From Candidatus Thorarchaeota archaeon (GTDB lineage: Archaea > Asgardarchaeota > Thorarchaeia > Thorarchaeales > Thorarchaeaceae), in assembly GCA_029855935.1 (NCBI GenBank), contig JAGSHN010000023.1, forward strand, positions 1 to 64,000: DNA of 64,000 nt, read 5' to 3'. The notes beneath the pieces were generated by a model. The model was given only the letters and a program-made list of their open reading frames with translations. It had not been told where the DNA came from and did not search any database. The position numbers and the translations under genes are program-made. Positions 5,124 to 28,603 of this stretch are shown here, in pieces (position 1 is the stretch's first letter; every line of letters begins with the position of its first letter).

Positions 5124-5426
5124 TCCGAAGGCTCATGGATATGAGAACAGGGGGTGGACTCCAGATCACACTAGGCTGTGCCTTGGCAAGATATCTCTCC
5201 CCACGAGAACCCGTGTCATTCAGTAGAACACCGCTCCTTGAGACCATCCTCGTATCTTGGCTGATATATCTTGTCCTCATCACCGCCTTACGATAAGGAA
5301 CACCGCTGCCCAGCCGAAAGGAGAAACAGATTGACATGAGACTATCTCGCCACGGATCATCTCTTGTGCTTGCCACACCGAAACCAGATGCTCTGCAACA
5401 CGGCCTCTAGGGCCCACTTGGGAGGT

Positions 5427-6023
5427 TCAGTCACGGGGAATGGCATCAGCCAGTGACGGAGAGTCTGTGTCCTCGGCGGGGGCAGACGAACGGGCAGTTG
5501 TTGGAACTGACGGCCAGCTCTCGCACGCGCAGACTTTTCGCACTTCGAATTCCCATCCGTTCCTATCTGCAATCTCCCTCATCGCAGCCTTGTGGGCTGC
5601 GCCCATTACTAGGACGAAGGTGCCGTACTGAATGAATTTCAGGAGACGCTCCACTCTGCGCTCCCGCAGCCTGCTCCGCGTCTCATCGGTGAGTCCGACC
5701 CTGTTGAAGACCTCGTACTCTGCATCGGTGAGGTCCCATCCGAACATGTTCAGCACACACCTCTTCCCTCCCTCCTCCTGGAGCAGGTCCTCCATCAACC
5801 AGTTATAGGACTTGGCGAGGAAGACATCGTGCGGGTCTGGCTCCCTGCCAGCTCTATAGCTGTCCCTGAGGGGTCTAAGTCGTTCGTCGCTTATCTCCAG
5901 CAGTATCTTATGAGGACAAGTGACCAGCCAGTGAGCGACCATCGCATTGCAGTACTTCCCGTCTACGGGCTCGACGTTGTAATGGTCGTGCAGGGGGACG
6001 TAGATTATCCGGAGGTCAGGCAT
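5427..6023 (-). CDS. Hypothetical protein, possibly TraB/GumN(TIKI)/ChaN-like fold
   Basis: 198 aa; N-terminal strand ending in PLHDH, ILLE, and a C-terminal R...FVLVMGAAH resembling the vvvGaaH motif of that superfamily. Family assignment is weak. Confidence 0.5.
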   Translation of the reverse strand: MPDLRIIYVPLHDHYNVEPVDGKYCNAMVAHWLVTCPHKILLEISDERLRPLRDSYRAGREPDPHDVFLAKSYNWLMEDLLQEEGGKRCVLNMFGWDLTDAEYEVFNRVGLTDETRSRLRERRVERLLKFIQYGTFVLVMGAAHKAAMREIADRNGWEFEVRKVCACESWPSVPTTARSSAPAEDTDSPSLADAIPRD

Positions 6024-10275: not shown

Positions 10276-13200
10276 TCACTCCGAGGCGCTGCTACCGCTA
10301 CGGCGCTTCTTGACTAGGATGACTATCACAACCACCAGAATGCCTGCGGCTGCCACGACTCCTACAATTACAACAGGATCGAGTCCTCCGGACGGAGGAG
10401 CCGTACTGGTCGTCGTGGTGCCTGTACTGGTGGTCCCCGTGGTTGTTCCCGTGGTGGTCCCCGTCGTCGTCGAGGTGGTCGTGGTGGTCGTAGTGGTGGT
10501 ACTCTCCTCTACGACATGAACGATTGTCGTGGCGGATGATGAATGTCCTGCCTGGTCGGTGACCACGATTGTGAAGTTGTAGACTCCGGCCGCGAGGCCC
10601 GACAGTGGCACCTGTACCGTCGTTGGCGAGAGGTAGGGCCCTTGACCAACAATTGTACCGTTCCGGTAGAGCGAGTAGGCGTCAGGGAAGACATCAGAGA
10701 GATCCCACGAGACATACTCGCTCGCACCCACAGTGACCGTCATCTCATCAACACCGGACACGGTCGGCGGGTGGTCATCCACACGAAACACATACCGGCT
10801 CATCGCCTCGTTGCCTGCGTCATCACTTGCGTAGACGAACAGGCTTCTCTCGCCATCGCCTGCCGGAACCGGGATGTCGTATGGCGGTGATATCGTGGTA
10901 TTGCTGCCATCAGTGTCCCATCTGAACTGCACAAGTGCCAGATGGTCATCCGTCACGGACAACGAAACAACGTCGGAGCTTGTGACAAACGTGTAGTTTG
11001 CCGGTGACACAAGAGCAATGGCTGGCGCGTCCGAGTCGATGTAGAACACAAAGGTCGAAGAGGCAGTGTTCCCGGCTGTGTCGTTGGCCGTGACAGACAG
11101 TGTGTGCTGCCCCGCGGATGACGGGATGACGGTGTCATACGGTGCCGACCAGACCTGAGATGCCGCTCCATCCCACGAGTAGAGAACGGTATCGACATCA
11201 CCGCCGCCGATACTCACGTCGACGGTCACGGGCTCGCTGTGAACAGAGGAGTTCGCGGGCGAGCTGAGCGTGATCGTCGGCGGAGTGGAGTCGGTGGTGA
11301 ACTGGTACGAGGCGGTCGCCCAGTTACCAGCACTGTCCTCAGCAAAGACGTCCAGCGTGTGCAGGCCCTCAGCCGTCGGGAATGTCAGGTCATACGGACT
11401 GCTCAGCGTCGCGTTGGAGCCACTGTCCCAAGCGTACAGCACCTCATAGACGCCAGTCTCGATGTCGCTCACTCCCAGGTCTATCACAGTCCCGGGTGTC
11501 CTCGTGCTGCCATCAGGTGGCGAGTTGAGGCTGATGCTCGGAGGCGTCCTATCCAGACCCACCTCGGCGATGAAGGCATCGTTGGAGCCACCGAGAGTGT
11601 CATCATATGGCCGACTCATCGGGAAGTCGCTCGACGCGGTCTCACCTGTGACTAGGGCCGTACCATTCGGATACGCGACTATGCCACGACCATATTCATT
11701 CTGTGAGCCGCCAAGGTAAGTTGCCATCATCATCCCGCCTGTGCTGTTGAAGTGCAGCACAGTGGTCTCCGAGTTCACGGCGACAGTGTCGAAGGCGTTG
11801 AACAGCGGCGCGCTGACGTCAGACAAGGTGCCGCTGACCAGCACGTCATCGTTGTCGGCACCAAAGCAGGCGTCGCCGCCGTATGCGCCAAAGGTCCCGC
11901 CGAAGTACGTGCTCCACAGAAGCGACGTATAGGAGCCTGTGTAGCGCGTGATGAACAGATCATAGTTCCCACCATTTGTGCTCTGGTAGGCATCGACGAC
12001 GGGGAAGTCACTAGAGGCGGTCCTGCCCGTTGCCACCACCGCACCAGCAATGTTCGCGGCCACGCCCGTGCCATACTCCACGCCGGATCCTCCAAGGTAT
12101 GTGGAGAACCGGATTGCTCCGGCACCAGTGAAACTTGCCACGAACGCATCCGACGAACCGCCAAGCGTGGTGTCGTTGGCGCTCTGGGTTGGGAAGTTCG
12201 AGGACCAGGTCGTTCCGACGACGTAGATGTTGCCGCTACCGTCCAACTCGACATCATTGGCCTCGTCCGAGTGCGCAAGGTCGGAAGACAGACCATTGCC
12301 GCCCAGATACGTCGAGAAGATCAGACCGTTGCCCGTGGAGTTGAATTTCGTCACAAAGGCGTCACTGTAGCCGCCTGACGTGCTCTGGTAGGCGTTTACA
12401 ACGGGAATCGTGTTCGTGACACCCACAATGACCGCCTGCCCTGAGGTGTCCACTGCGATAGCGTGGCCCTCAGTAGTGTCGTTGCCAAAGTACGTGGAGT
12501 AGATCAGACCGTTGCCGTTGGAGTTCAGCTTCAGCACGAAGGCATCGGGCGTGCCGCTTCCAGAGCCGGAGTAGGTCGAGTCATAGGCGTTCACGGTCGG
12601 AAAGTCACTTGAGTAGGTCAGTCCGGTGGCATAGACGTTGCCATCGCTGTCTACAAAGATGCCACGTCCGATATCGTCCCCGCTACCACCCACATAGGTG
12701 CTCCACACCACTGATGATGTGCGCGGGTCCAACTTGGTCACGAATACATCGAGTCCGCCATTGTGTGTAGTGTCGTACGCGTCCACAGGAAAGCCATTGC
12801 CCTGGGTGGAGCCGACGACGTAGGCATAACCGTACAGATCTACTGCAATGTCATAGCCTGAGTCACTGCTACCACCCCCCAGATAGGTGCTGAAGAGGAG
12901 GCCAAAGTCGACACGCACTCCGAACGCAAACACAGAGGCGGTCTCATGACCTGCTGCGTCGCTGGCATAGACGTAGAGATAGGCCCATCCCTCTGCGAAT
13001 GGTATTCGCGTCTCATAGGGCGACGTCCAAGAACTGTTCGAACTCTGTGTGGACCACCGATAGTAGGCGCTCGTCAGATGTGCGTCAGAGACTGAGACTT
13101 GGACGAGAGTCCCGGAATACTGAACCGTTCCATTCGTGGGCGATGTCAGACTGACAGCGGGCGGCGTGTCATCGCAGGTGAATGTGTAGCTTGTTGACGC

Positions 13201-18871: not shown

Positions 18872-21343
18872 ATGACCCACCACCACAGACTACATGTACG
18901 GAGACTCGTCATCTTGACGCTGCTTGTGACTATACTCTCCTCGTTCCTTGTGACAACAAGACTCAGTACAGACCCGTCGCCATTGACGGTTGACCCGACC
19001 AATACCCCAACCCGGCGGGACGCCCGTGCGACTCAGGCGATTCCAGCCATCTCGTCGGCCTATGCCACACAAGACAGCATTCTTGAACCTCGTGAGGAAT
19101 GGTCGATTGACAGTGCGAGGCAATGGTACTGGCCCGTTGTTCACGACCTGAATGGAGATGGCAACGTGGAGCTCGTCGTAGAGACTAGTGACGGCATTCT
19201 ATGTGCCAATGCCAAGAGCGGGTCAACAATCTGGACATTTGACTTTGCGAGTAGCGGTGAGATCTTGAGCAGCGACATTGCAATGGCAGATGCCAACGGA
19301 GACGGCACCAGTGACGTGATTGTTGCAATCACGGATCAGCCGCAGGACAAGGACAGACTGGTATGTATTAATGGCGGAACAGGTGAACTGCTCTGGCAGA
19401 AGCAGAACGGCGATCAAATCACATTGGTCGCGGCCTACGACATCATGGGCGATGCAGACTACGAACTCCTGGTAGGATCCGGGAACCTCTCGTGTCTTGA
19501 CGTGTCAGACGGCTCAGTGCTATGGACGGCACTCAGCGGTGTGTGGTTGTACGGTAATCCCGTGATCAGCGATTTCAACGGCGACGGTTGGACCGAGATA
19601 TATGTCCCAACCGAGAACAATCTCTACTGTCTCGGATATGACGGCTCGGTGAAGTGGAGTGCTTCCGGTGGGGGCCATGTTCCGCAGGGTGTCTTTCTTG
19701 CCGACGGTGATGAGGATGGTGAACCTGAACTCTATATGTTGTCCGATGAGATTGAGGTCCGTAGACCCAGTAGCGGCGCACTGGTCTGGAGTATCGACTG
19801 TGAGGCCTCAGCAATTGTTCCCGGAGACGTGGATGGAGACGGCCATCTGGAGGTCATCGCCTCGTCGAGCAAGACTGTCTATTGCTACAACCTCGACGAC
19901 AGAGGTTCTCTTCTCTGGTCAAGAAGGCTAACGAACAAGGCCTCAGTACCCACAATCGTGGATGTGGATGGCGATGGCGATCTGGATGTCGTGGTGGCCG
20001 AGTCTGATGGAAGCCACGTTCGTGCCCTTGATGGCAGGTCGGGTGAGGTGCTGTGGGACCTGAATGACTACTTTGGAATTCCACGCTCCGTTGTAGTTGC
20101 CCCCCGCGGTCCCAGTGAGAACGAGGACTACTTCTACCTTCTGGCCCCAACGTCGTCAGACGGACTCGTCTGTCTGAATCCTGCAACATATGGCAGGCGT
20201 GTCTTCTGGCAGAATCCGGGTGGTGTGTTTGATTGTCTTCCACTCAGAGACACGAGCGCTATTGATGCAGATGGCGACATGATGTCGGCACGTAGCGAGG
20301 TGACATATGGCACTGACCTTCTCGATGCCGACACAGACGATGACGGGCTGCCAGATGGTTGGGAGGTCTCGAACCAACTTGACCCCCTGAATGCAAGCGA
20401 TGCTGGGGACGACCCGGACGGGGACGGACTCGCCAACATCTTTGAGTACGGCAACTGCACGGACCCCACTGACCCCGACACAGACAACGACGGAATGCCG
20501 GATGGCTGGGAACTCAGCAACCGCCTTGATCCACTTAACGCAGAAGACGCGAACGATGACAACGATGAGGACGAACTCACGAACCTTGAGGAGTACCAGC
20601 TAGGTACCAACCCCCACTCCTGGGACACAGACGGAGACCTCATGTCAGACAGCTGGGAGGTTGCAAACAATCTCAATCCTCTGGTCGACGACAGTACGGA
20701 CGATCCCGACAATGATGGCGCGACCAACGGGGATGAGTACATTGCAGGTACGGACCCGCACGATAGCGACACGGATGACGATGGTCTCCTTGATGGCTGG
20801 GAGATGCAGTACGTCGGTCTGGACCCGCTTCAGCCCGGACAGGGTGATGAGGACTCGGACTCTGACGGCCTGACGAACCTACAGGAGCAAGACGCGGGAA
20901 CGAATCCGAACAGACCAGACACCGACAACGACCACTGTCCGGATGGCTGGGAGATTGCCCACGACCTTGATCCACTCGACCCTGACGACGGCGCTGAGGA
21001 CACGGACTCAGACGGCCTGATCAATTCGCTCGAATACGACTATGGCACTGACCCGAGGGACGCCGACACCGACGGCGACACAATGCCTGATGGTTGGGAG
21101 GTCCAGTTTGGCCTAGACCCCACTGACCCCACAGTCGGCGATGCGGATGGTGATATGCTTGACGACAGTCAGGAGTTCGCTCTCGGCTCCTTGCCCAACT
21201 GTTCAGACACTGACGGCGATTTCGCTCCTGACGGTCTCGAGGCTATGATCTCTCTATCGCCCACCAACCCCAATGACTTCAGAATCGTCATGGGCATACT
21301 CGTTGTCGTAATGATTGGAGTTGTGTGGAAGAGAAGGCGGTGA
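18872..21343 (+). CDS. Surface protein: FG-GAP/PQQ-like propeller plus tandem acidic Ca-binding (TSP3-like DxDxDGxxDxWE) repeats, C-terminal TM + KRRR
   Basis: ORF 18707..21343; likely start MTHHHRLHVRRLVILTLL at 18872. DLNGDG/DANGDG/DVDGDG repeats, then many DTDxDGxPDGWE / GTxP repeats. Confidence 0.85.
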   Translation: MTHHHRLHVRRLVILTLLVTILSSFLVTTRLSTDPSPLTVDPTNTPTRRDARATQAIPAISSAYATQDSILEPREEWSIDSARQWYWPVVHDLNGDGNVELVVETSDGILCANAKSGSTIWTFDFASSGEILSSDIAMADANGDGTSDVIVAITDQPQDKDRLVCINGGTGELLWQKQNGDQITLVAAYDIMGDADYELLVGSGNLSCLDVSDGSVLWTALSGVWLYGNPVISDFNGDGWTEIYVPTENNLYCLGYDGSVKWSASGGGHVPQGVFLADGDEDGEPELYMLSDEIEVRRPSSGALVWSIDCEASAIVPGDVDGDGHLEVIASSSKTVYCYNLDDRGSLLWSRRLTNKASVPTIVDVDGDGDLDVVVAESDGSHVRALDGRSGEVLWDLNDYFGIPRSVVVAPRGPSENEDYFYLLAPTSSDGLVCLNPATYGRRVFWQNPGGVFDCLPLRDTSAIDADGDMMSARSEVTYGTDLLDADTDDDGLPDGWEVSNQLDPLNASDAGDDPDGDGLANIFEYGNCTDPTDPDTDNDGMPDGWELSNRLDPLNAEDANDDNDEDELTNLEEYQLGTNPHSWDTDGDLMSDSWEVANNLNPLVDDSTDDPDNDGATNGDEYIAGTDPHDSDTDDDGLLDGWEMQYVGLDPLQPGQGDEDSDSDGLTNLQEQDAGTNPNRPDTDNDHCPDGWEIAHDLDPLDPDDGAEDTDSDGLINSLEYDYGTDPRDADTDGDTMPDGWEVQFGLDPTDPTVGDADGDMLDDSQEFALGSLPNCSDTDGDFAPDGLEAMISLSPTNPNDFRIVMGILVVVMIGVVWKRRR
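20260..21270 (+). repeat. Intragenic tandem acidic DxDxDG..D.WE / ..TN.EEY..GTDP repeats
   Basis: Visible in the translation of 18872..21343. Confidence 0.8.
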
Positions 21344-21574
21344 CAGTACTCGGCACTCGTGCAGTTCACTAGCCCCACGACGGGTAGACCGGCAACAAGG
21401 TCAGGTCGGAACACAACATACAGACCTCAGACCGGATCTCGGGTCGAAGTACGGACTGCCGACAAGCATATGTCGCTCCAGATGGGTCGCTCGTGCCTCC
21501 GTTGGCTGAAGCAAGTGGGCCAGTGGCGCAGATGATGCAGCCACCGTAGGGAGGAGAGGTCTCCCCCGCCCAAC

Positions 21575-21730
21575 CTAGTTCCGTTATGCCCCGTTCTCAG
21601 CGGACGACGCCAGCAGATGACACCTGCTCCAACGCGCCACTCGGGACACAGGAACATGCTCCTGGGAGGCGTTATGAACGGCAGGCCGGGAGAGGGGCTA
21701 TCCACCGGCGTCATCCGGCCGAACTACTCA
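21575..21730 (-). ncRNA. Putative unannotated structured RNA (~150 nt)
   Basis: Arms 21601-21618 and 21700-21717 form an 18-bp helix whose 4 non-Watson-Crick positions are all G-U on the minus strand; internal hairpin CAGGA..TCCTG; TATA-like box ~25 nt upstream. Confidence 0.6.
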
Positions 21731-21734
21731 CGCA

Positions 21735-21777
21735 GCGTCGTCCCGGCTCTGTATATAAGGGGAACATGGGACGACGC
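21735..21777 (-). promoter_or_regulatory. TATA-like box (CTTATATA on minus) flanked by a perfect 10-bp inverted repeat GCGTCGTCCC-N23-GGGACGACGC
   Basis: Arms at 21735-21744 and 21768-21777; TATATAAG at 21752-21759 (plus). Confidence 0.55.
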
Positions 21778-21807
21778 CGAGGGTTCCAGAGTTTACTTCC
21801 CGCGGAC

Positions 21808-23280
21808 TCAGGCACCAAGACTGAGGATATCATTGGTGAGGAAGCTGTCGCGCAGGGAGAGGAGTCTGTCAACGATGAGCCCATTCTCGGTGTTGACCCG
21901 GAAAGACAGCGCGGATGAGGTCCTACGACTCTGCAGATAGAGTATCAGTCTCAGATTTCGGAGTGTCTCCAGAGTGGGTCCGGGGACGGGGTAGAGATCC
22001 GACCTCCTTACCCGCTCATATCGGCGCCGTGTACTCGCCACAAGATTCGAGGCCCCTCTCTCAATCTGGTTGGCCGTCCTAGCTCCCAGCAGCTCGTCGG
22101 CAATCCGATATCTCTGTGGGTCCATCTCCACAAGATAGTCATCACGAAGAAAGGCAAGCGCGAGGTAGTCGAGAACTGTGAGCATGGGGCCACCTATCTC
22201 AAGTTTGGCGGTATCAGAATGCCCCTGCCTGAAGTATGACGTTATCGCTCCCCGGAGATCTGGCGCCACATCAGCAAGGACAAGCACTTCTCTGACAGAC
22301 AGCGACTGAACAAAATCACGCACCTCTCTCTTGAGCTTCTTGAATCTCTCCAGCAGGCGTAGCCGATTGGCCACCTCAGAGTAGACGTGTCTCTGGTACG
22401 ATGAGGCAAGCGCATTCTCGTAGAAGTCTACCCGCACAGAATACTTGAGAGGATTGAGCGAATAATAGAGGGACTGAAGGAGATCACGGACCTTCACCAT
22501 AGACGAGTCCCCACTGGTGCGGAGAAGATTCCAGATGGCAGGAATGGAGTTCCTGTGAGCAAAGGCTAGTAAGGCCGCGTCAGTGACCCGTCTCTCAAAC
22601 TCTCGGGATATATGGGGTCGTATGACTATGCTCATAGTGTGCAGCCCCGGGAAGGACACCTCAATCTTTGAGAACGGCTCAGCCCCGGCCGCCACCTTGG
22701 TTCGATGGGCAAACACTTCGACTCTCTCGGTGGGAGAGAACCTCCGGCCTACTCTCAGACGCCCGACGAACAACAGTTTCTCAATGGATCGCTTGACCAG
22801 TCGAAGACGGGAGTTGAACTCACTATGCAGAGTTCCCAGCCAAGACTCATCCACCAGATACGGACCATTCGGAGAGATCTGGAGTCGGTACTCTGCGAAG
22901 AGGGAAGGATAGAGACGAACAGACCACACCAGATCAAAGTGCTCTGCGCCGACGGTGTCGTGTTGGATCTTCTTGGCCACGAGCGGCATCGGCATTCTAT
23001 ATGAGACATAGTAGTCATCACATATGACTCGGTAGTGAAGAGATCTGCACAGGTTTCGCCCTCGGAGAGGCCACCTCAGCCTCCCGACGCCGTGTACGAA
23101 TAGTCGCTCGTCGAGTCTGGCCGTGCCTCGAAGCACCCCTTCAAACTTCCTCCACAGTCGTTCCCGCCATCCGAGAAACGACAGCTCAGGCCGGAGACGT
23201 TCTCGCTCAAGGACCATCTCAGGCAATGCGATTGAGGCTGAGAGTACTACCCTCTGTCGATCCCTAGGGTCCAAAGTCAT
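21808..23280 (-). CDS. Hypothetical basic (Arg-rich) protein, 490 aa, no recognisable family
   Basis: Long ORF overlapping the upstream wHTH gene by 17 nt (translational coupling). Confidence 0.8.
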   Translation of the reverse strand: MTLDPRDRQRVVLSASIALPEMVLERERLRPELSFLGWRERLWRKFEGVLRGTARLDERLFVHGVGRLRWPLRGRNLCRSLHYRVICDDYYVSYRMPMPLVAKKIQHDTVGAEHFDLVWSVRLYPSLFAEYRLQISPNGPYLVDESWLGTLHSEFNSRLRLVKRSIEKLLFVGRLRVGRRFSPTERVEVFAHRTKVAAGAEPFSKIEVSFPGLHTMSIVIRPHISREFERRVTDAALLAFAHRNSIPAIWNLLRTSGDSSMVKVRDLLQSLYYSLNPLKYSVRVDFYENALASSYQRHVYSEVANRLRLLERFKKLKREVRDFVQSLSVREVLVLADVAPDLRGAITSYFRQGHSDTAKLEIGGPMLTVLDYLALAFLRDDYLVEMDPQRYRIADELLGARTANQIERGASNLVASTRRRYERVRRSDLYPVPGPTLETLRNLRLILYLQSRRTSSALSFRVNTENGLIVDRLLSLRDSFLTNDILSLGA

Positions 23281-24796
23281 CTGTCATCACACGCCACTTT
23301 CCCTCGTCTGCATCCCAACGGGAAACGGGCAGCTTCCATCCGAAGAGATGATAGCTTCCGTGATAGCTGAGCAGGCAGTCTTCTTCCTGAAACTTCATTC
23401 GCACGTCCTCAAATATCCATCTGGCATATTGGGCCGGGACCTTGGCGATGACCGTGCTGAGGCCGTTCGTTGCTCTCTGACAGTAGAGCTCAGGCAGGAA
23501 GGAGAGAGCCCGACAGATGCGCCGATAGAGTGAGACGTCGCTGTTGTGAATGACGAGGAAGAGCGAACCGGGAGCGTAGACGGTGGTAGCAACCACCCTC
23601 TCCCACAGGATACCCCTTGAGCGTAGGTCGGCCACGATTCCCAACACGGTATTATACTTCCGGCCGACCTTCCGCCTTATGTCCCTCACCGAGGTCAGAC
23701 CTTTGTTCAGGATGGCATCGATGACGGCCAGATAGCTCTCGTCCAGCACGAAGCCCTCAAGGTCGAGCTGGCGTCCAGTCAACTGCACAGGCGGCGGGTT
23801 CTCGAACGCGTCCTGTAGTCTCCTATGGAATGTCTCAAAGACCGCCCACTGCGAACCGTCAAACAGGTCATAGTCGATATTCGCCCAGCATAGGCTCTCG
23901 TCCCGCTCCCCCGCGGTGACTCTCACGACCCCCGGTGCGTCGGCAAGGCTCTCAAGCCACATCCTGCCCTCTCTGAACGGTGACCACCAGCGCGGTACAA
24001 CTATGTTCACAAGGGCAAAGCTCTCCCCGGTTGATGTCCGAAGGACGTTGTAGAGCCAGGGATTCTGTTTCCCTAGATATGGAGGCAGGCGCGTCGAGTG
24101 ATCCTCAAGCTCAAGAGCCATTATGACCGTCTTCAGCCCGATGCCCGCATACGAGACAGTCGGTATCGTCCACAGGACTCCCCGCCGTCGGAGGTTGTTC
24201 AGTACTCTTGAGACATAGCCCTTGGAGGTCCCGAGCCGAGCCGCAAGCCTCTGCGGCGAGACTGTCTGGTACGCGAGTGCGGTGCGAAATACCAGAAGGG
24301 TGCTCTGGGATAGTGTCGGAACGCGCTCAGACCGGAACTCAAACAGGTCTTGAATGAACAGTTCCCTGAAGGCAGGCCCAGCCTCCTCAATTCGCCTCTG
24401 ATACATCTCGCGCATCCTGTCGAACGCATCTCGAAATCCAAGGAGAGAACGATATACGAATGGTGGGCGATAGACGCGGCCATCGCCGTAGTCGCGTTCG
24501 CGAGAGGTCGCGGCCCACAGCTCCTCCCACCGACCAAGATCGCACTCGGGAAGTGCAAGCAACTCGGACAGCATCTGCTCAGTCCGGAAGCACACAAGAT
24601 CCCACGCAATGGTTCCCGGATACGCGCCCATCTCACGGGCGAGCTCACCTGCGGCCTCGGCGACCGCCTGAATCTCTAGCCGCTTCTCGGGCCAGATGTC
24701 GACAAGCGAGCTCACCATATCCTCAATGGCCATACGTTTGAACGGGGCCCCCGCACGAATCGGAATTCCCGTCCTTGGTTCGTCGCCAGCGGGCAT
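23264..24796 (-). CDS. Tandem Lrp/AsnC-like winged-helix regulator (two HTH + RAM-like modules)
   Basis: HTH1 SPQRLAARLGTSKGYVSRVLNNLRRRGVL followed by Lrp-type linker VSYAGIGL; HTH2 LDESYLAVIDAIL...SVRDIRRKVGRKYNTVLGIVADLRSRGIL. Confidence 0.75.
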   Translation of the reverse strand: MPAGDEPRTGIPIRAGAPFKRMAIEDMVSSLVDIWPEKRLEIQAVAEAAGELAREMGAYPGTIAWDLVCFRTEQMLSELLALPECDLGRWEELWAATSRERDYGDGRVYRPPFVYRSLLGFRDAFDRMREMYQRRIEEAGPAFRELFIQDLFEFRSERVPTLSQSTLLVFRTALAYQTVSPQRLAARLGTSKGYVSRVLNNLRRRGVLWTIPTVSYAGIGLKTVIMALELEDHSTRLPPYLGKQNPWLYNVLRTSTGESFALVNIVVPRWWSPFREGRMWLESLADAPGVVRVTAGERDESLCWANIDYDLFDGSQWAVFETFHRRLQDAFENPPPVQLTGRQLDLEGFVLDESYLAVIDAILNKGLTSVRDIRRKVGRKYNTVLGIVADLRSRGILWERVVATTVYAPGSLFLVIHNSDVSLYRRICRALSFLPELYCQRATNGLSTVIAKVPAQYARWIFEDVRMKFQEEDCLLSYHGSYHLFGWKLPVSRWDADEGKWRVMTDDFGP

Positions 24797-24926
24797 TTTC
24801 CTGTTCGTATTGTGGAAGGAGGGGCCTATTACATCTTCTGATTCTCGACGGACTAGCTAATCGAATTCCCGGGCCAGTGGTTGTCGGGCGACATTGGTCG
24901 TCCACAACAGAACGGAGGTGAATGGA

Positions 24927-24974
24927 GTGAATCCAGGAGATCCTTGGCCAATTCCTCCGTGGCGCCCGGCGTAA
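24927..24974 (+). CDS. Putative 15-aa Pro/Trp-rich peptide MNPGDPWPIPPWRPA
   Basis: Perfect SD GGAGGTGA (24914-24921), GTG start 5 nt later, TAA stop, then a hairpin + T12 terminator. Below the ORF-track cutoff. Confidence 0.5.
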   Translation: MNPGDPWPIPPWRPA

Positions 24975-24993
24975 GAACCGGCGTTGGCGGAGC

Positions 24994-25045
24994 GTCGAGG
25001 GACAGCACCCCGGCTGGCCCCGACATCTCTCTCTTTTTTTTTTTT
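24994..25045 (+). terminator. Hairpin + poly-T terminator
   Basis: GTCG-A-GGG-A-CAGC/GCTG-G-CCC-CGAC stem (24994-25024), followed by TCTCTCTC and 12 T (25034-25045). Confidence 0.65.
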
Positions 25046-25061
25046 CTGAGTCTCGGCGCAG

Positions 25062-25198
25062 GCGGAGACCAAGGTGGTGCCGAGGAGGCCCAGTTGAACC
25101 AGGCCTCTGCCCCCAGACATCCGGCTGCCCGGCCGCGGGGTTGATGCCCGCAGGGTCGCCAGACATGACAGGGGCAACACCATCTACCTAGTCTCCGC
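25062..25198 (-). ncRNA. Putative unannotated structured RNA (~137 nt, three-way junction)
   Basis: Closing helix 25062-25071/25189-25198, nested helices GCCCC/GGGGC, UCUGGC/GCCGGA, UGCGGG/CCCGCG and hairpin GAGGCCUGGU/ACUGGGCCUC; many G-U pairs only on the minus strand. Confidence 0.55.
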
Positions 25199-25319
25199 GC
25201 GCGTATTTCAGTATTGCGAGAACACCGATCCGAGGCCCTCCCTGCACCTCTTGCAAGTATGAATTGAGAATCGCCCTCAGTACGGCGGACGGAGAGTCCT
25301 AGGTGACCGGACCACTATG

Positions 25320-25782
25320 TCCGATCAAGTATCATCATCCCATTCGTGACCGTTACCAGATCAACACGTGGGATAGTTGGACTATTGCGACCGATGTAAG
25401 CAAGACCTTCGACAATCAAATTGGTACTGATGAAGCGACTCACATAGTCTCTGCAGGATGGGCAGCAGTTTTCGCAGCAATCGGAGCATCTATTGGAAAC
25501 CTGATCGAGCCAGGCGGAGGAGCGGTATTTGGTGCCTTTTCTGGACGGCGTACTTTGTGGTCTACTTGGCTGTGCAACTCAAGCCCAGCTCTATGATGAG
25601 GAGGGATGCATTTGGTGGTGTTGGGGCAAGGCATTTAGTGATTGGTTTTCTGCAACGCATGGTGGTTGGTACTTTGGCCACAGTATGGATTGCCAATTGC
25701 TGCTGCAGCATTTCTCGCGACGGACTACTTACAAATTGGTGACTGCACATCTATTGACGCACCAAGGTCGGGAAATCCATAG
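25320..25782 (+). pseudogene. Frameshifted C-terminal remnant of a glycine-zipper (bacteriocin/pore-former-like) protein
   Basis: Three frames join: ...GWAAVFAAIGASIGNLIEPGGGAVFGAF / LDGVLCGLLG...LYDEEGCIWWCW / NAWWLVLWPQYGLPIAAAAFLATDYLQIGDCTSIDAPRSGNP*. Confidence 0.55.
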
Positions 25783-27739: not shown

Positions 27740-28603
27740 TCACCCTTCATTCATGTCTGCAAGATCAATGACTGCATTCACGAATCTCGATATGTCATCG
27801 AGTTCCTCATCGATGAGCTTGAACACAAGGGCATTGTCAATCCTCGAATACAGGTGCACAAGCCTGTGACGAAAGCGAACCATCGACATCATTCTTCGTG
27901 CCAAGTCCTCGTCAATCAGTCCTCTGTCGCGAAGAATCTGAAAGATATCAACATAGCTTGTTGGTCTGCCCAGCTTCCTTGCTGACACCAAGTGGCCCGC
28001 CATATCGATGCACGACTCTATTGCGAGATGAAGAGCTCGCTCTGCCATCAACCGGGTCTCCAGTGAGGCGAAGTACGCATTCAAACCCCCCTCCCTGACG
28101 CGCGTGAGTACGTCCAGTGCCTGCTCTGTGATGGAGATTCCTGAAACCAGCATATCTGGATCAATCATCCTTCGCAGCCGCCCAGCAAAGCGTCGGACCA
28201 TATGCCTATCGTACATCATCCAGATGCGCTGCATCTCATCATACTCGTCCCACGTACGACGCTCGAATTCTGCTCTCAACATAGGATCCCGGTCAAGAAA
28301 GAGGATGCCACGTCTCACGACGTTGTTTCTGAGCGCCACGTCGGCGTGGTTCAGACACACGACGTCAATCCGCGAAGAGCCGAGGGCCTCTGATATGCGG
28401 ATTGTGAGTTCCCTTGTCATCTGCAGGCAGACATCTGGAGAAGAGTCGTTCAGGAGAATGGCGACGTCTATGTCACTCATCGGTGTTGCTTCGCCGGACG
28501 CAACCGACCCGAACAGATAGGCCGCCGTCACTCTCTCCTCGCGCCCAAGCACCCTCTTGATAACAGCGAGTATCCATTCTACCTCCGATAGCATCACTAG
28601 CAA
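27740..28603 (-). CDS. Fused MNT nucleotidyltransferase - HEPN/DUF86 protein
   Basis: N-half LFGS-VASGEATPMS-DID; C-half ERALHLAIESCIDM...RHRLVHLY, in one 287-aa frame. Confidence 0.85.
   Translation of the reverse strand: MLVMLSEVEWILAVIKRVLGREERVTAAYLFGSVASGEATPMSDIDVAILLNDSSPDVCLQMTRELTIRISEALGSSRIDVVCLNHADVALRNNVVRRGILFLDRDPMLRAEFERRTWDEYDEMQRIWMMYDRHMVRRFAGRLRRMIDPDMLVSGISITEQALDVLTRVREGGLNAYFASLETRLMAERALHLAIESCIDMAGHLVSARKLGRPTSYVDIFQILRDRGLIDEDLARRMMSMVRFRHRLVHLYSRIDNALVFKLIDEELDDISRFVNAVIDLADMNEG

Follow-up and report, generated by a model that had tools for sequence, protein, structure and literature searches.

A candidate hairpin RNA behind a predicted promoter related to cas10d promoters in a Candidatus Thorarchaeota genome

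The candidate structured RNA described here, RNA A, lies in a 64-kb stretch of the genome of a Candidatus Thorarchaeota archaeon (64,000 nucleotides, hereafter the window). It occupies part of a 464-nt non-coding spacer between the convergent ends of a gene for an 878-aa PQQ/FG-GAP surface protein and a gene for a 490-aa protein. The features of the locus are the following.

23264 to 24796, minus strand: 510-aa tandem winged-helix gene, one half of a regulator pair, with its last 17 nt shared with the 490-aa gene.
21808 to 23280, minus strand: 490-aa gene, the other half of the pair, with a C-terminal winged-helix domain in its predicted fold.
21784 to 21796, minus strand: putative conserved regulator half-site GTAAACTCTGGAA, 11 nt past the stop codon of the 490-aa gene.
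21735 to 21744 and 21768 to 21777, no strand assigned: perfect 10-bp inverted repeat GCGTCGTCCC / GGGACGACGC, from a repeat search.
21752 to 21758, minus strand: TATA box TTATATA, at +39 from the start of the half-site.
21723 to 21731, minus strand: predicted transcription start zone, the best guess being G21729 after T21730.
21596 to 21723, minus strand: long imperfect hairpin, the predicted core of RNA A, from the folds and their pair list, with the apical loop at 21659-21654.
21700 to 21717, minus strand: 5' arm of an 18-bp helix, holding a one-mismatch copy of a repeated core (GGATGACGCC) at 21716-21707.
21601 to 21618, minus strand: 3' arm of the 18-bp helix, holding core copy "a" (GGCGTCGTCC) at 21611-21602.
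21344 to 21595, minus strand: remaining non-coding spacer, with more minus-strand hairpins and no T-run terminator.

A preliminary description of this DNA had singled out two arms that pair imperfectly and whose mismatches all become G-U pairs in a minus-strand RNA. Both arms are where it had placed them, at 21601-21618 and 21700-21717. They contain 14 Watson-Crick pairs and 4 mismatches in 18 positions, and all four mismatches are A-C or C-A on the plus strand and G-U or U-G on the minus strand. In the MFE fold of the minus strand, these two 18-nt arms are the base of a hairpin of 128 nt and 51 bp that runs from 21723 to 21596, with 27 G-C, 11 A-U, and 13 G-U predicted pairs. The hairpin is kept in both the MFE and the centroid structures when 156, 300, or 464 nt of the minus strand are folded, and it does not form in the fold of the plus strand. 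A covariance model made from the single sequence scored that same sequence at 168.8 bits on the minus strand versus 27.1 bits on the plus strand. As for the finer details proposed earlier, the apical AGGA/UCCU stem is present in the MFE fold, but the outer UAGUUC/GAACUA extension is not, its place being taken by UUCGGC/GCUGAG.

The strand asymmetry of the mismatches was explored by aligning the 5' arm of the hairpin to the reverse complement of its 3' arm, with scoring blind to mismatch type. Besides 36 Watson-Crick pairs, the alignment has 13 positions that would be G-U in a minus-strand RNA, 2 that would be G-U in a plus-strand RNA, 7 other mismatches, and 6 gap positions. With arm boundaries that were themselves taken from the minus-strand fold, the 13:2 split toward the minus strand has a one-sided binomial p of 0.004, or of 0.012 when the T/A skew of the flanks is used. 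Outside the 18 bp first described, the split is 9:2 (p of 0.03). Selection on an RNA helix, which had been proposed from the first four G-U pairs, gains from the continuation of the bias past those pairs, but the thermodynamic signal is modest and no RNA homolog was found.

Helices of 18 bp with no more than 4 G-U pairs and with 3 to 120 nt in the loop were counted to judge how far this one exceeds chance. There is one in the window and there are five in the 2.97-Mb genome, and first-order Markov genomes give 2.6 ± 1.65. The expectation is approximately 0.06 to 0.1 such helices per 64-kb window, and the helix by itself is therefore marginal. Folding of both strands against shuffled sequences, a check put forward in the preliminary description, gave −67.5 kcal/mol for the minus strand (z of −2.46; 3 of 200 shuffles equally good) and −57.6 kcal/mol for the plus strand (z of −1.2). 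The minus strand fares better, but the significance is modest and the gap between strands is ordinary, ranking 635 of 2,457. After GC correction, the fold energy of the candidate ranks 93rd among 4,914 real 156-nt windows (z of −2.0). The whole 464-nt spacer on the minus strand has a z of −2.58 and folds better than each of 100 shuffles. By itself, the strand-specific G-U argument cannot separate a functional RNA from the long-helix background of a genome with 56% GC.

Several other parts of the window have noteworthy folds. The interval 21503-21658 (minus), just 3' of the hairpin, ranks 7th of the 4,914 for GC-corrected fold energy; it holds short G-rich and C-rich hairpins and may share the transcript of RNA A. 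The most stable 156-nt fold of the whole window falls at 11155-11360 (plus), with −85.5 kcal/mol, 5 standard deviations under the GC trend, and sits within a 1,752-aa open reading frame (ORF) of the opposite strand. A second candidate of the preliminary description, "RNA B," at 25039-25220 (minus), is among the top dozen GC-corrected fold energies (about −2.8 standard deviations), and no sequence is shared between RNA A and the region of "RNA B" (24797-25450).

No terminator-like site was found on either strand in 21000-22200, and the hairpin is followed neither by a run of five T nor by another oligo-T tract. The sequence defines no 3' end for RNA A, and the length of ~150 nt given in the preliminary description is a guess.

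The assignment of RNA A to no known RNA family stands. Searches with Rfam 15 gave no match at the gathering score in the whole window, which also contains no tRNA. When matches at E up to 10 were admitted for 21300-21850, the sole one was to a plant-virus hairpin, at 14 bits, and is attributable to chance. BLAST found the element as a single copy in the 2.97-Mb assembly and no nucleotide homolog in 60 relatives, and the single-sequence covariance model found no structural relative in its own genome or in 100 relatives. Exact-word scans gave 20 matches in metagenome contigs, none adjoining a homolog of either winged-helix protein; at least 118 in genome contigs, all by chance, the pattern being too loose; and one chance match of 17 nt in viral contigs. 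With no relative of RNA A in sequence or structure in any of these collections, there is no covariation on which to draw.

Three other identities were considered and rejected. A repeated mobile element (MITE or IS end) is ruled out by the single copy, and the flanking hexamers TAGTTC and GAACTA, being inverted and not direct, are not a target-site duplication. A remnant of cas10d is ruled out because tblastn found no Cas10d similarity in the spacer. A small protein gene, the 95-aa ORF at 21714-21427 (minus), is ruled out by codon usage, second-position GC content (GC2), and the lack of homologs. Its codon score of −0.116 per codon is like that of spurious ORFs (mean of −0.107) and below the 1st percentile of pieces of real genes (−0.046); its GC2 is 0.62, compared with 0.43 in the genes of the genome; and a search of 5.8 billion cluster representatives, limited to a length band, found no homolog at E up to 0.01.

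The genes upstream of the spacer place it in a wider context. The 510-aa protein matches the Pfam families MarR_2, TrmB, and HTH_24, with weak similarity of its second winged-helix domain to helix-turn-helix domains of the Csa3/CasR type. An AlphaFold2 model of the 490-aa protein has a mean pLDDT of 87.7, and in this model residues 355 to 486 resemble winged helices of the MarR/ORC type (Z of 8 to 9.3). In comparison with the PDB, matches are confined to this C-terminal winged helix. A Foldseek search with the whole model, and thus with the N-terminal 350 residues as part of it, gave no match at E up to 0.001. Neither protein contains a WYL or CARF domain detectable with Pfam, NCBIfam, or PADLOC.

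The 490-aa gene had been taken for an orphan, a view that does not hold, since there are about 15 homologs. HMMER with the 490-aa protein retrieved 18 proteins at E up to 0.001, its own entry included, 12 of them at E up to 1e−30, and genome searches added further homologs; a search for related loci with the 510-aa protein alone found nothing. A partner of the 510-aa type adjoins every 490-aa homolog. In 12 loci (L012 to L017, L179 to L181, L177, L023, and L024), the pair is directly upstream of cas10d-csc2-csc1-cas3, the interference module of type I-D CRISPR-Cas systems, although two of these are on short contigs that end within the downstream gene, so that its identity as cas10d is a presumption. 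No CRISPR array was found on the retrieved contigs of these I-D-linked relatives. A more solid by-product of this analysis is that the pair is a conserved and undescribed winged-helix module associated with type I-D systems and having a recognizable operator.

Looking behind the homologs of the 490-aa gene, as had been suggested, uncovered a shared promoter but no homolog of RNA A, even in the other spacers that lack cas genes. A GTAAACTYTGGAA-like site is found just past the stop codon of the 480- to 490-aa gene in 13 of 13 scored loci, with 9 to 13 of its 13 positions matching; in the window, 12 of the 13 match the consensus. The TATA box follows at +37 to +40 from the start of this half-site in all 12 scorable loci, TTATATAC being at +39 in the window. 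In nine I-D-linked loci, the ATG of cas10d is at +66 to +74 from the start of the half-site, which fits a leaderless mRNA. In the window, this interval maps to 21731-21723, 27 to 35 nt past the start of the TATA box, and 21723 is the first paired position of the hairpin. There is no start codon at the position equivalent to that of cas10d. A minus-strand start near 21730, as first proposed, is supported because the promoter elements align at a fixed spacing with the cas10d promoters of the relatives, and it remains a prediction from that alignment.

In the I-D-linked loci, the GTAAACTYTGGAA-like site is the right half of a palindrome, a putative operator in which a TTCC..GTTTAC half, located at the stop codon, is followed after 15 to 17 nt by GTAAAC..GGAA. 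No second inverted half-site was found in the window, where the left half reaches at best 7 of 13 positions, read by eye. Exact copies of the half-site in the 2.97-Mb genome number one, the copy described here, and no near copy was found by the operon's own promoter. The window promoter is without the purine-rich stretch that the I-D-linked promoters carry directly upstream of the TATA box, and it is GC-rich at −14 to −1. By what is generally known of archaeal promoters, both features count against the reading of RNA A favored below, and a GC-rich region from −14 to −1 is unfavorable for melting. The window promoter may therefore be weak or tightly repressed.

The window is not alone in having no cas10d behind this promoter. 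The same holds for two genomes of the same genus (G001 and G002) and for a metagenomic lineage (L010/L011), and in all of these Cas-less loci the 300 to 400 nt past the promoter hold no credible gene. The four Cas-less proteins group together as a single clade (support of 100/99), with internal paths of 1.5 to 2.2 substitutions per site, in a maximum-likelihood tree of 16 homologs, and with midpoint rooting this clade nests among the I-D-linked proteins. One old separation from the cas genes is the simplest history, with the reservation that midpoint rooting leaves the direction of change not established. The half-site is 7 to 14 nt past the stop codon in the Cas-less clade, compared with 30 to 44 nt in the I-D-linked loci; with so little room, the palindrome is without its left half.

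When the Cas-less spacers of the window, G001/G002, and L010 were compared, only the promoter could be aligned. The conservation of the half-site and TATA box next to unalignable sequence argues that the promoter is under selection without the cas genes. The spacer of G001 folds at a z of −2.3 and that of L010 at +0.18, which is unstructured, and neither shares a common architecture with RNA A. Between G001 and G002, the transcribed part of the spacer differs by approximately 2% substitutions, and third codon positions of the flanking genes differ by 6.6 to 18.6%. The low divergence lends weak, independent support to constraint on such spacers. In L010, the spacer is followed by a co-directional 110-aa ORF (5335-5667) that is strongly hydrophobic, like a multi-pass membrane protein, and this ORF may be what the promoter actually serves in that lineage.

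The genome that contains the window has no Csc2. It has cas genes of other types, I-B-like and III, at a distance of 100 kb. On this same contig (C29, 120000-135515, locus L031), a type I-B-like cas6-cas8b-cas7-cas5-cas3-cas4-cas1 cluster is accompanied by two RAMP genes (type III-like) and by a short CRISPR array whose repeat begins GTTTGAATCGGACTAG and ends GGGTTGAAAC. Several more arrays are found on contigs C18, C20, C24, and C28. RNA A has no similarity to the genome's own CRISPR repeat. Within the window, a gene for a fused nucleotidyltransferase-HepT protein, resembling MNT-HepT toxin-antitoxin systems, is present at 27740-28603 (minus), and a HepT gene is also found near the homologous regulator pair of G001 (L029, 4975-5397). 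The presence of HepT genes near both pairs suggests that these loci sit in defense or variable islands. No nucleotide-level synteny with the same-genus genomes was found from which the borders of an insertion could be drawn.

We tentatively favor, at a little less than an even chance, the reading that RNA A forms the 5' stem-loop of a non-coding transcript that is specific to the lineage, under the control of a regulator, and made from a predicted orphan promoter. The minus-strand start of this transcript would be at about 21729, which leaves 6 nt ahead of the hairpin, and its promoter appears homologous to those that drive cas10d in the type I-D operons of related archaea. Control of this promoter presumably falls to the winged-helix pair (510 aa and 490 aa), acting through the GTAAACTYTGGAA site approximately 65 nt upstream of the start. 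The cas operon would no longer be behind the promoter, either here or in the nearest relatives of the proteins, its place being taken by 300 to 400 nt of non-coding DNA. The first 128 nt are predicted to fold into the 51-bp hairpin, in which mismatches would be tolerated mostly as G-U pairs (13:2) of a minus-sense RNA. The helix with its strand asymmetry, the repeated core, the conserved half-site with its spacing to the TATA box, the absence of coding potential, and the single Cas-less clade are observed; we infer the activity of the promoter, its start site, the binding of the half-site by the pair, and the role of the hairpin. A plausible role is that of a stable 5' structure or a protein-binding helix in a regulator-controlled RNA. 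Against this reading, a quarter of the pairs are G-U and internal loops are many, as in a decaying inverted duplication, and the z values of about −2 to −2.5, the 0.06 to 0.1 helices expected per window, the ordinary energy difference between the strands, the lack of relatives, and the lack of an oligo-T terminator also count against it.

The same observations can be read as those of a neutral relic, in which the promoter and the pair have outlived the cas operon, the hairpin is a decaying inverted duplication or the product of template switching, and transcription is incidental. We consider this rather unlikely. RNA A is a singleton without conservation, the three Cas-less lineages carry unrelated spacers, of which that of L010 is unstructured, and the five helices in the genome are close to the simulated number. 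The many G-U pairs and internal loops are likewise as expected, and the locus lies in a variable island without synteny in the same-genus genomes. However, a neutral inverted repeat should decay symmetrically, yet the wobble-type mismatches are split 13:2, and the promoter elements have outlasted the 1.5 to 2.2 substitutions per site that separate members of the Cas-less clade.

A short repeated core also stands against a neutral relic. The 9-mer GCGTCGTCC has three exact copies in the 64-kb window, all inside 21602-21777, and a fourth with one mismatch (as a 10-mer, at 21707-21716) brings the total to four in 176 nt. A simulated genome contains approximately 6.4 triples of any 9-mer within 200 nt, which amounts to 0.14 per window, and we estimate that demanding a fourth near-copy makes this roughly a hundredfold rarer. 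In the minus-strand direction, a first core is followed by the TATA box, an inverted core, the predicted start, a second inverted core carrying one transition, and, after approximately 90 nt, a last core. The first two copies are the perfect 10-bp inverted repeat that brackets the TATA box, and the last two are the base of the hairpin.

This arrangement allows for an array of DNA operators, in which the core (GGACGACGC/GCGTCGTCC) binds a protein, possibly either of the winged-helix neighbors, and the RNA fold is a by-product of inverted sites. The sites, at about −49, −14, +13, and +118 from the predicted start, would cage the TATA box and the start and so repress the promoter; archaeal repressor sites usually lie over −14 to −5. 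The clustering of the copies speaks for such an array, as do the perfect inverted repeat around the TATA box, which is upstream of the predicted start and thus outside RNA A, and the winged-helix proteins encoded by both neighboring genes. It is nonetheless unlikely. The complementarity of 51 pairs far exceeds a 10-bp site, and the G-U asymmetry is not predicted. Moreover, the homologous promoters in the relatives lack the core but conserve the GTAAAC... half-site, the likely site of the regulators, and no exact copy of the core is found at the own promoter of the 510/490-aa operon.

A broader reading, which we regard as decidedly doubtful, takes the Cas-less clade as an exapted CRISPR regulator module. 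Type I-D effectors would have been lost once, long ago, with the promoter kept and a lineage-specific structured RNA as its sole output, which would be RNA A in the window and other RNAs in G001/G002 and in L010. A sensor derived from defense would then control an RNA effector or an antisense regulator of the convergent neighbor gene.

Least probable is that both hairpins belong to the 3' untranslated region of the 510/490-aa operon and, after read-through past the stop codon at 21808, stabilize or process the mRNA 3' end: the strand is that of the operon, the first hairpin (10 bp, around the TATA box) starts 30 nt past the stop codon, both hairpins share the core helix sequence and form in the fold of the whole spacer, and no terminator separates them from the gene, but an independent start is favored by the conserved half-site and the TATA box, which are spaced as for a leaderless mRNA, the corresponding interval of the I-D-linked loci serves as a promoter and not as a 3' end, and neither hairpin is followed by an oligo-T tract.

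If RNA A is real, it would be a rare case of an archaeal small-RNA promoter with a traceable origin, a cas10d promoter that has survived the loss of its cas operon. It would also offer direct access to an uncharacterized regulator pair found upstream of type I-D CRISPR-Cas systems in one archaeal family, since the predicted target promoters of the pair in this genome number only one. If RNA A is not real, its context remains, in that the gene for the 490-aa protein, a supposed orphan, belongs to a conserved two-gene module that is linked to CRISPR systems and has a recognizable operator.

Small non-coding RNAs of archaeal intergenic regions have been found by RNA-seq in Haloferax, Sulfolobus, and Methanosarcina. 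RNA A resembles these in being intergenic, structured, lineage-specific, and without an Rfam family, and in having a predicted TATA-type promoter of its own. It differs in that a single, near-continuous 51-bp hairpin from +7 is unusually long, and in that it is known from sequence alone. With box C/D sRNAs, the hairpin shares a GGAUGA close to its 5' end and a CUGA close to its 3' end. However, the C box matches at 5 of 7 positions only, the boxes are approximately 115 nt apart in a regular helix without a K-turn, and Rfam snoRNA models gave no match to the hairpin even at E up to 10.

Small non-coding elements located by cas promoters have been described as regulating or safeguarding cas genes, namely the cr-like RNAs and CreTA (10.1101/2023.03.03.530964; PMC10120712). 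These consist of direct repeat-spacer units processed by Cas proteins (PMC10120712), whereas the element at the I-D-linked loci is palindromic, which suggests an operator for a protein.

The known regulators of type I-D systems are of the WYL or CARF type, such as the WYL-wHTH protein Sll7009 of Synechocystis and Csa3 of Sulfolobus islandicus (PMC10212523). Compared with these (PMC10212523), the pair described here consists of two large proteins rather than one small one, and WYL or CARF domains were not detected. Like the promoters of that work (PMC10212523), those of the 12 relatives' loci are dedicated to cas10d, with a regulator gene adjoining the I-D interference genes. The window differs from them (PMC10212523) in what the promoter faces, with no I-D gene next to it and a non-coding hairpin region in its place.
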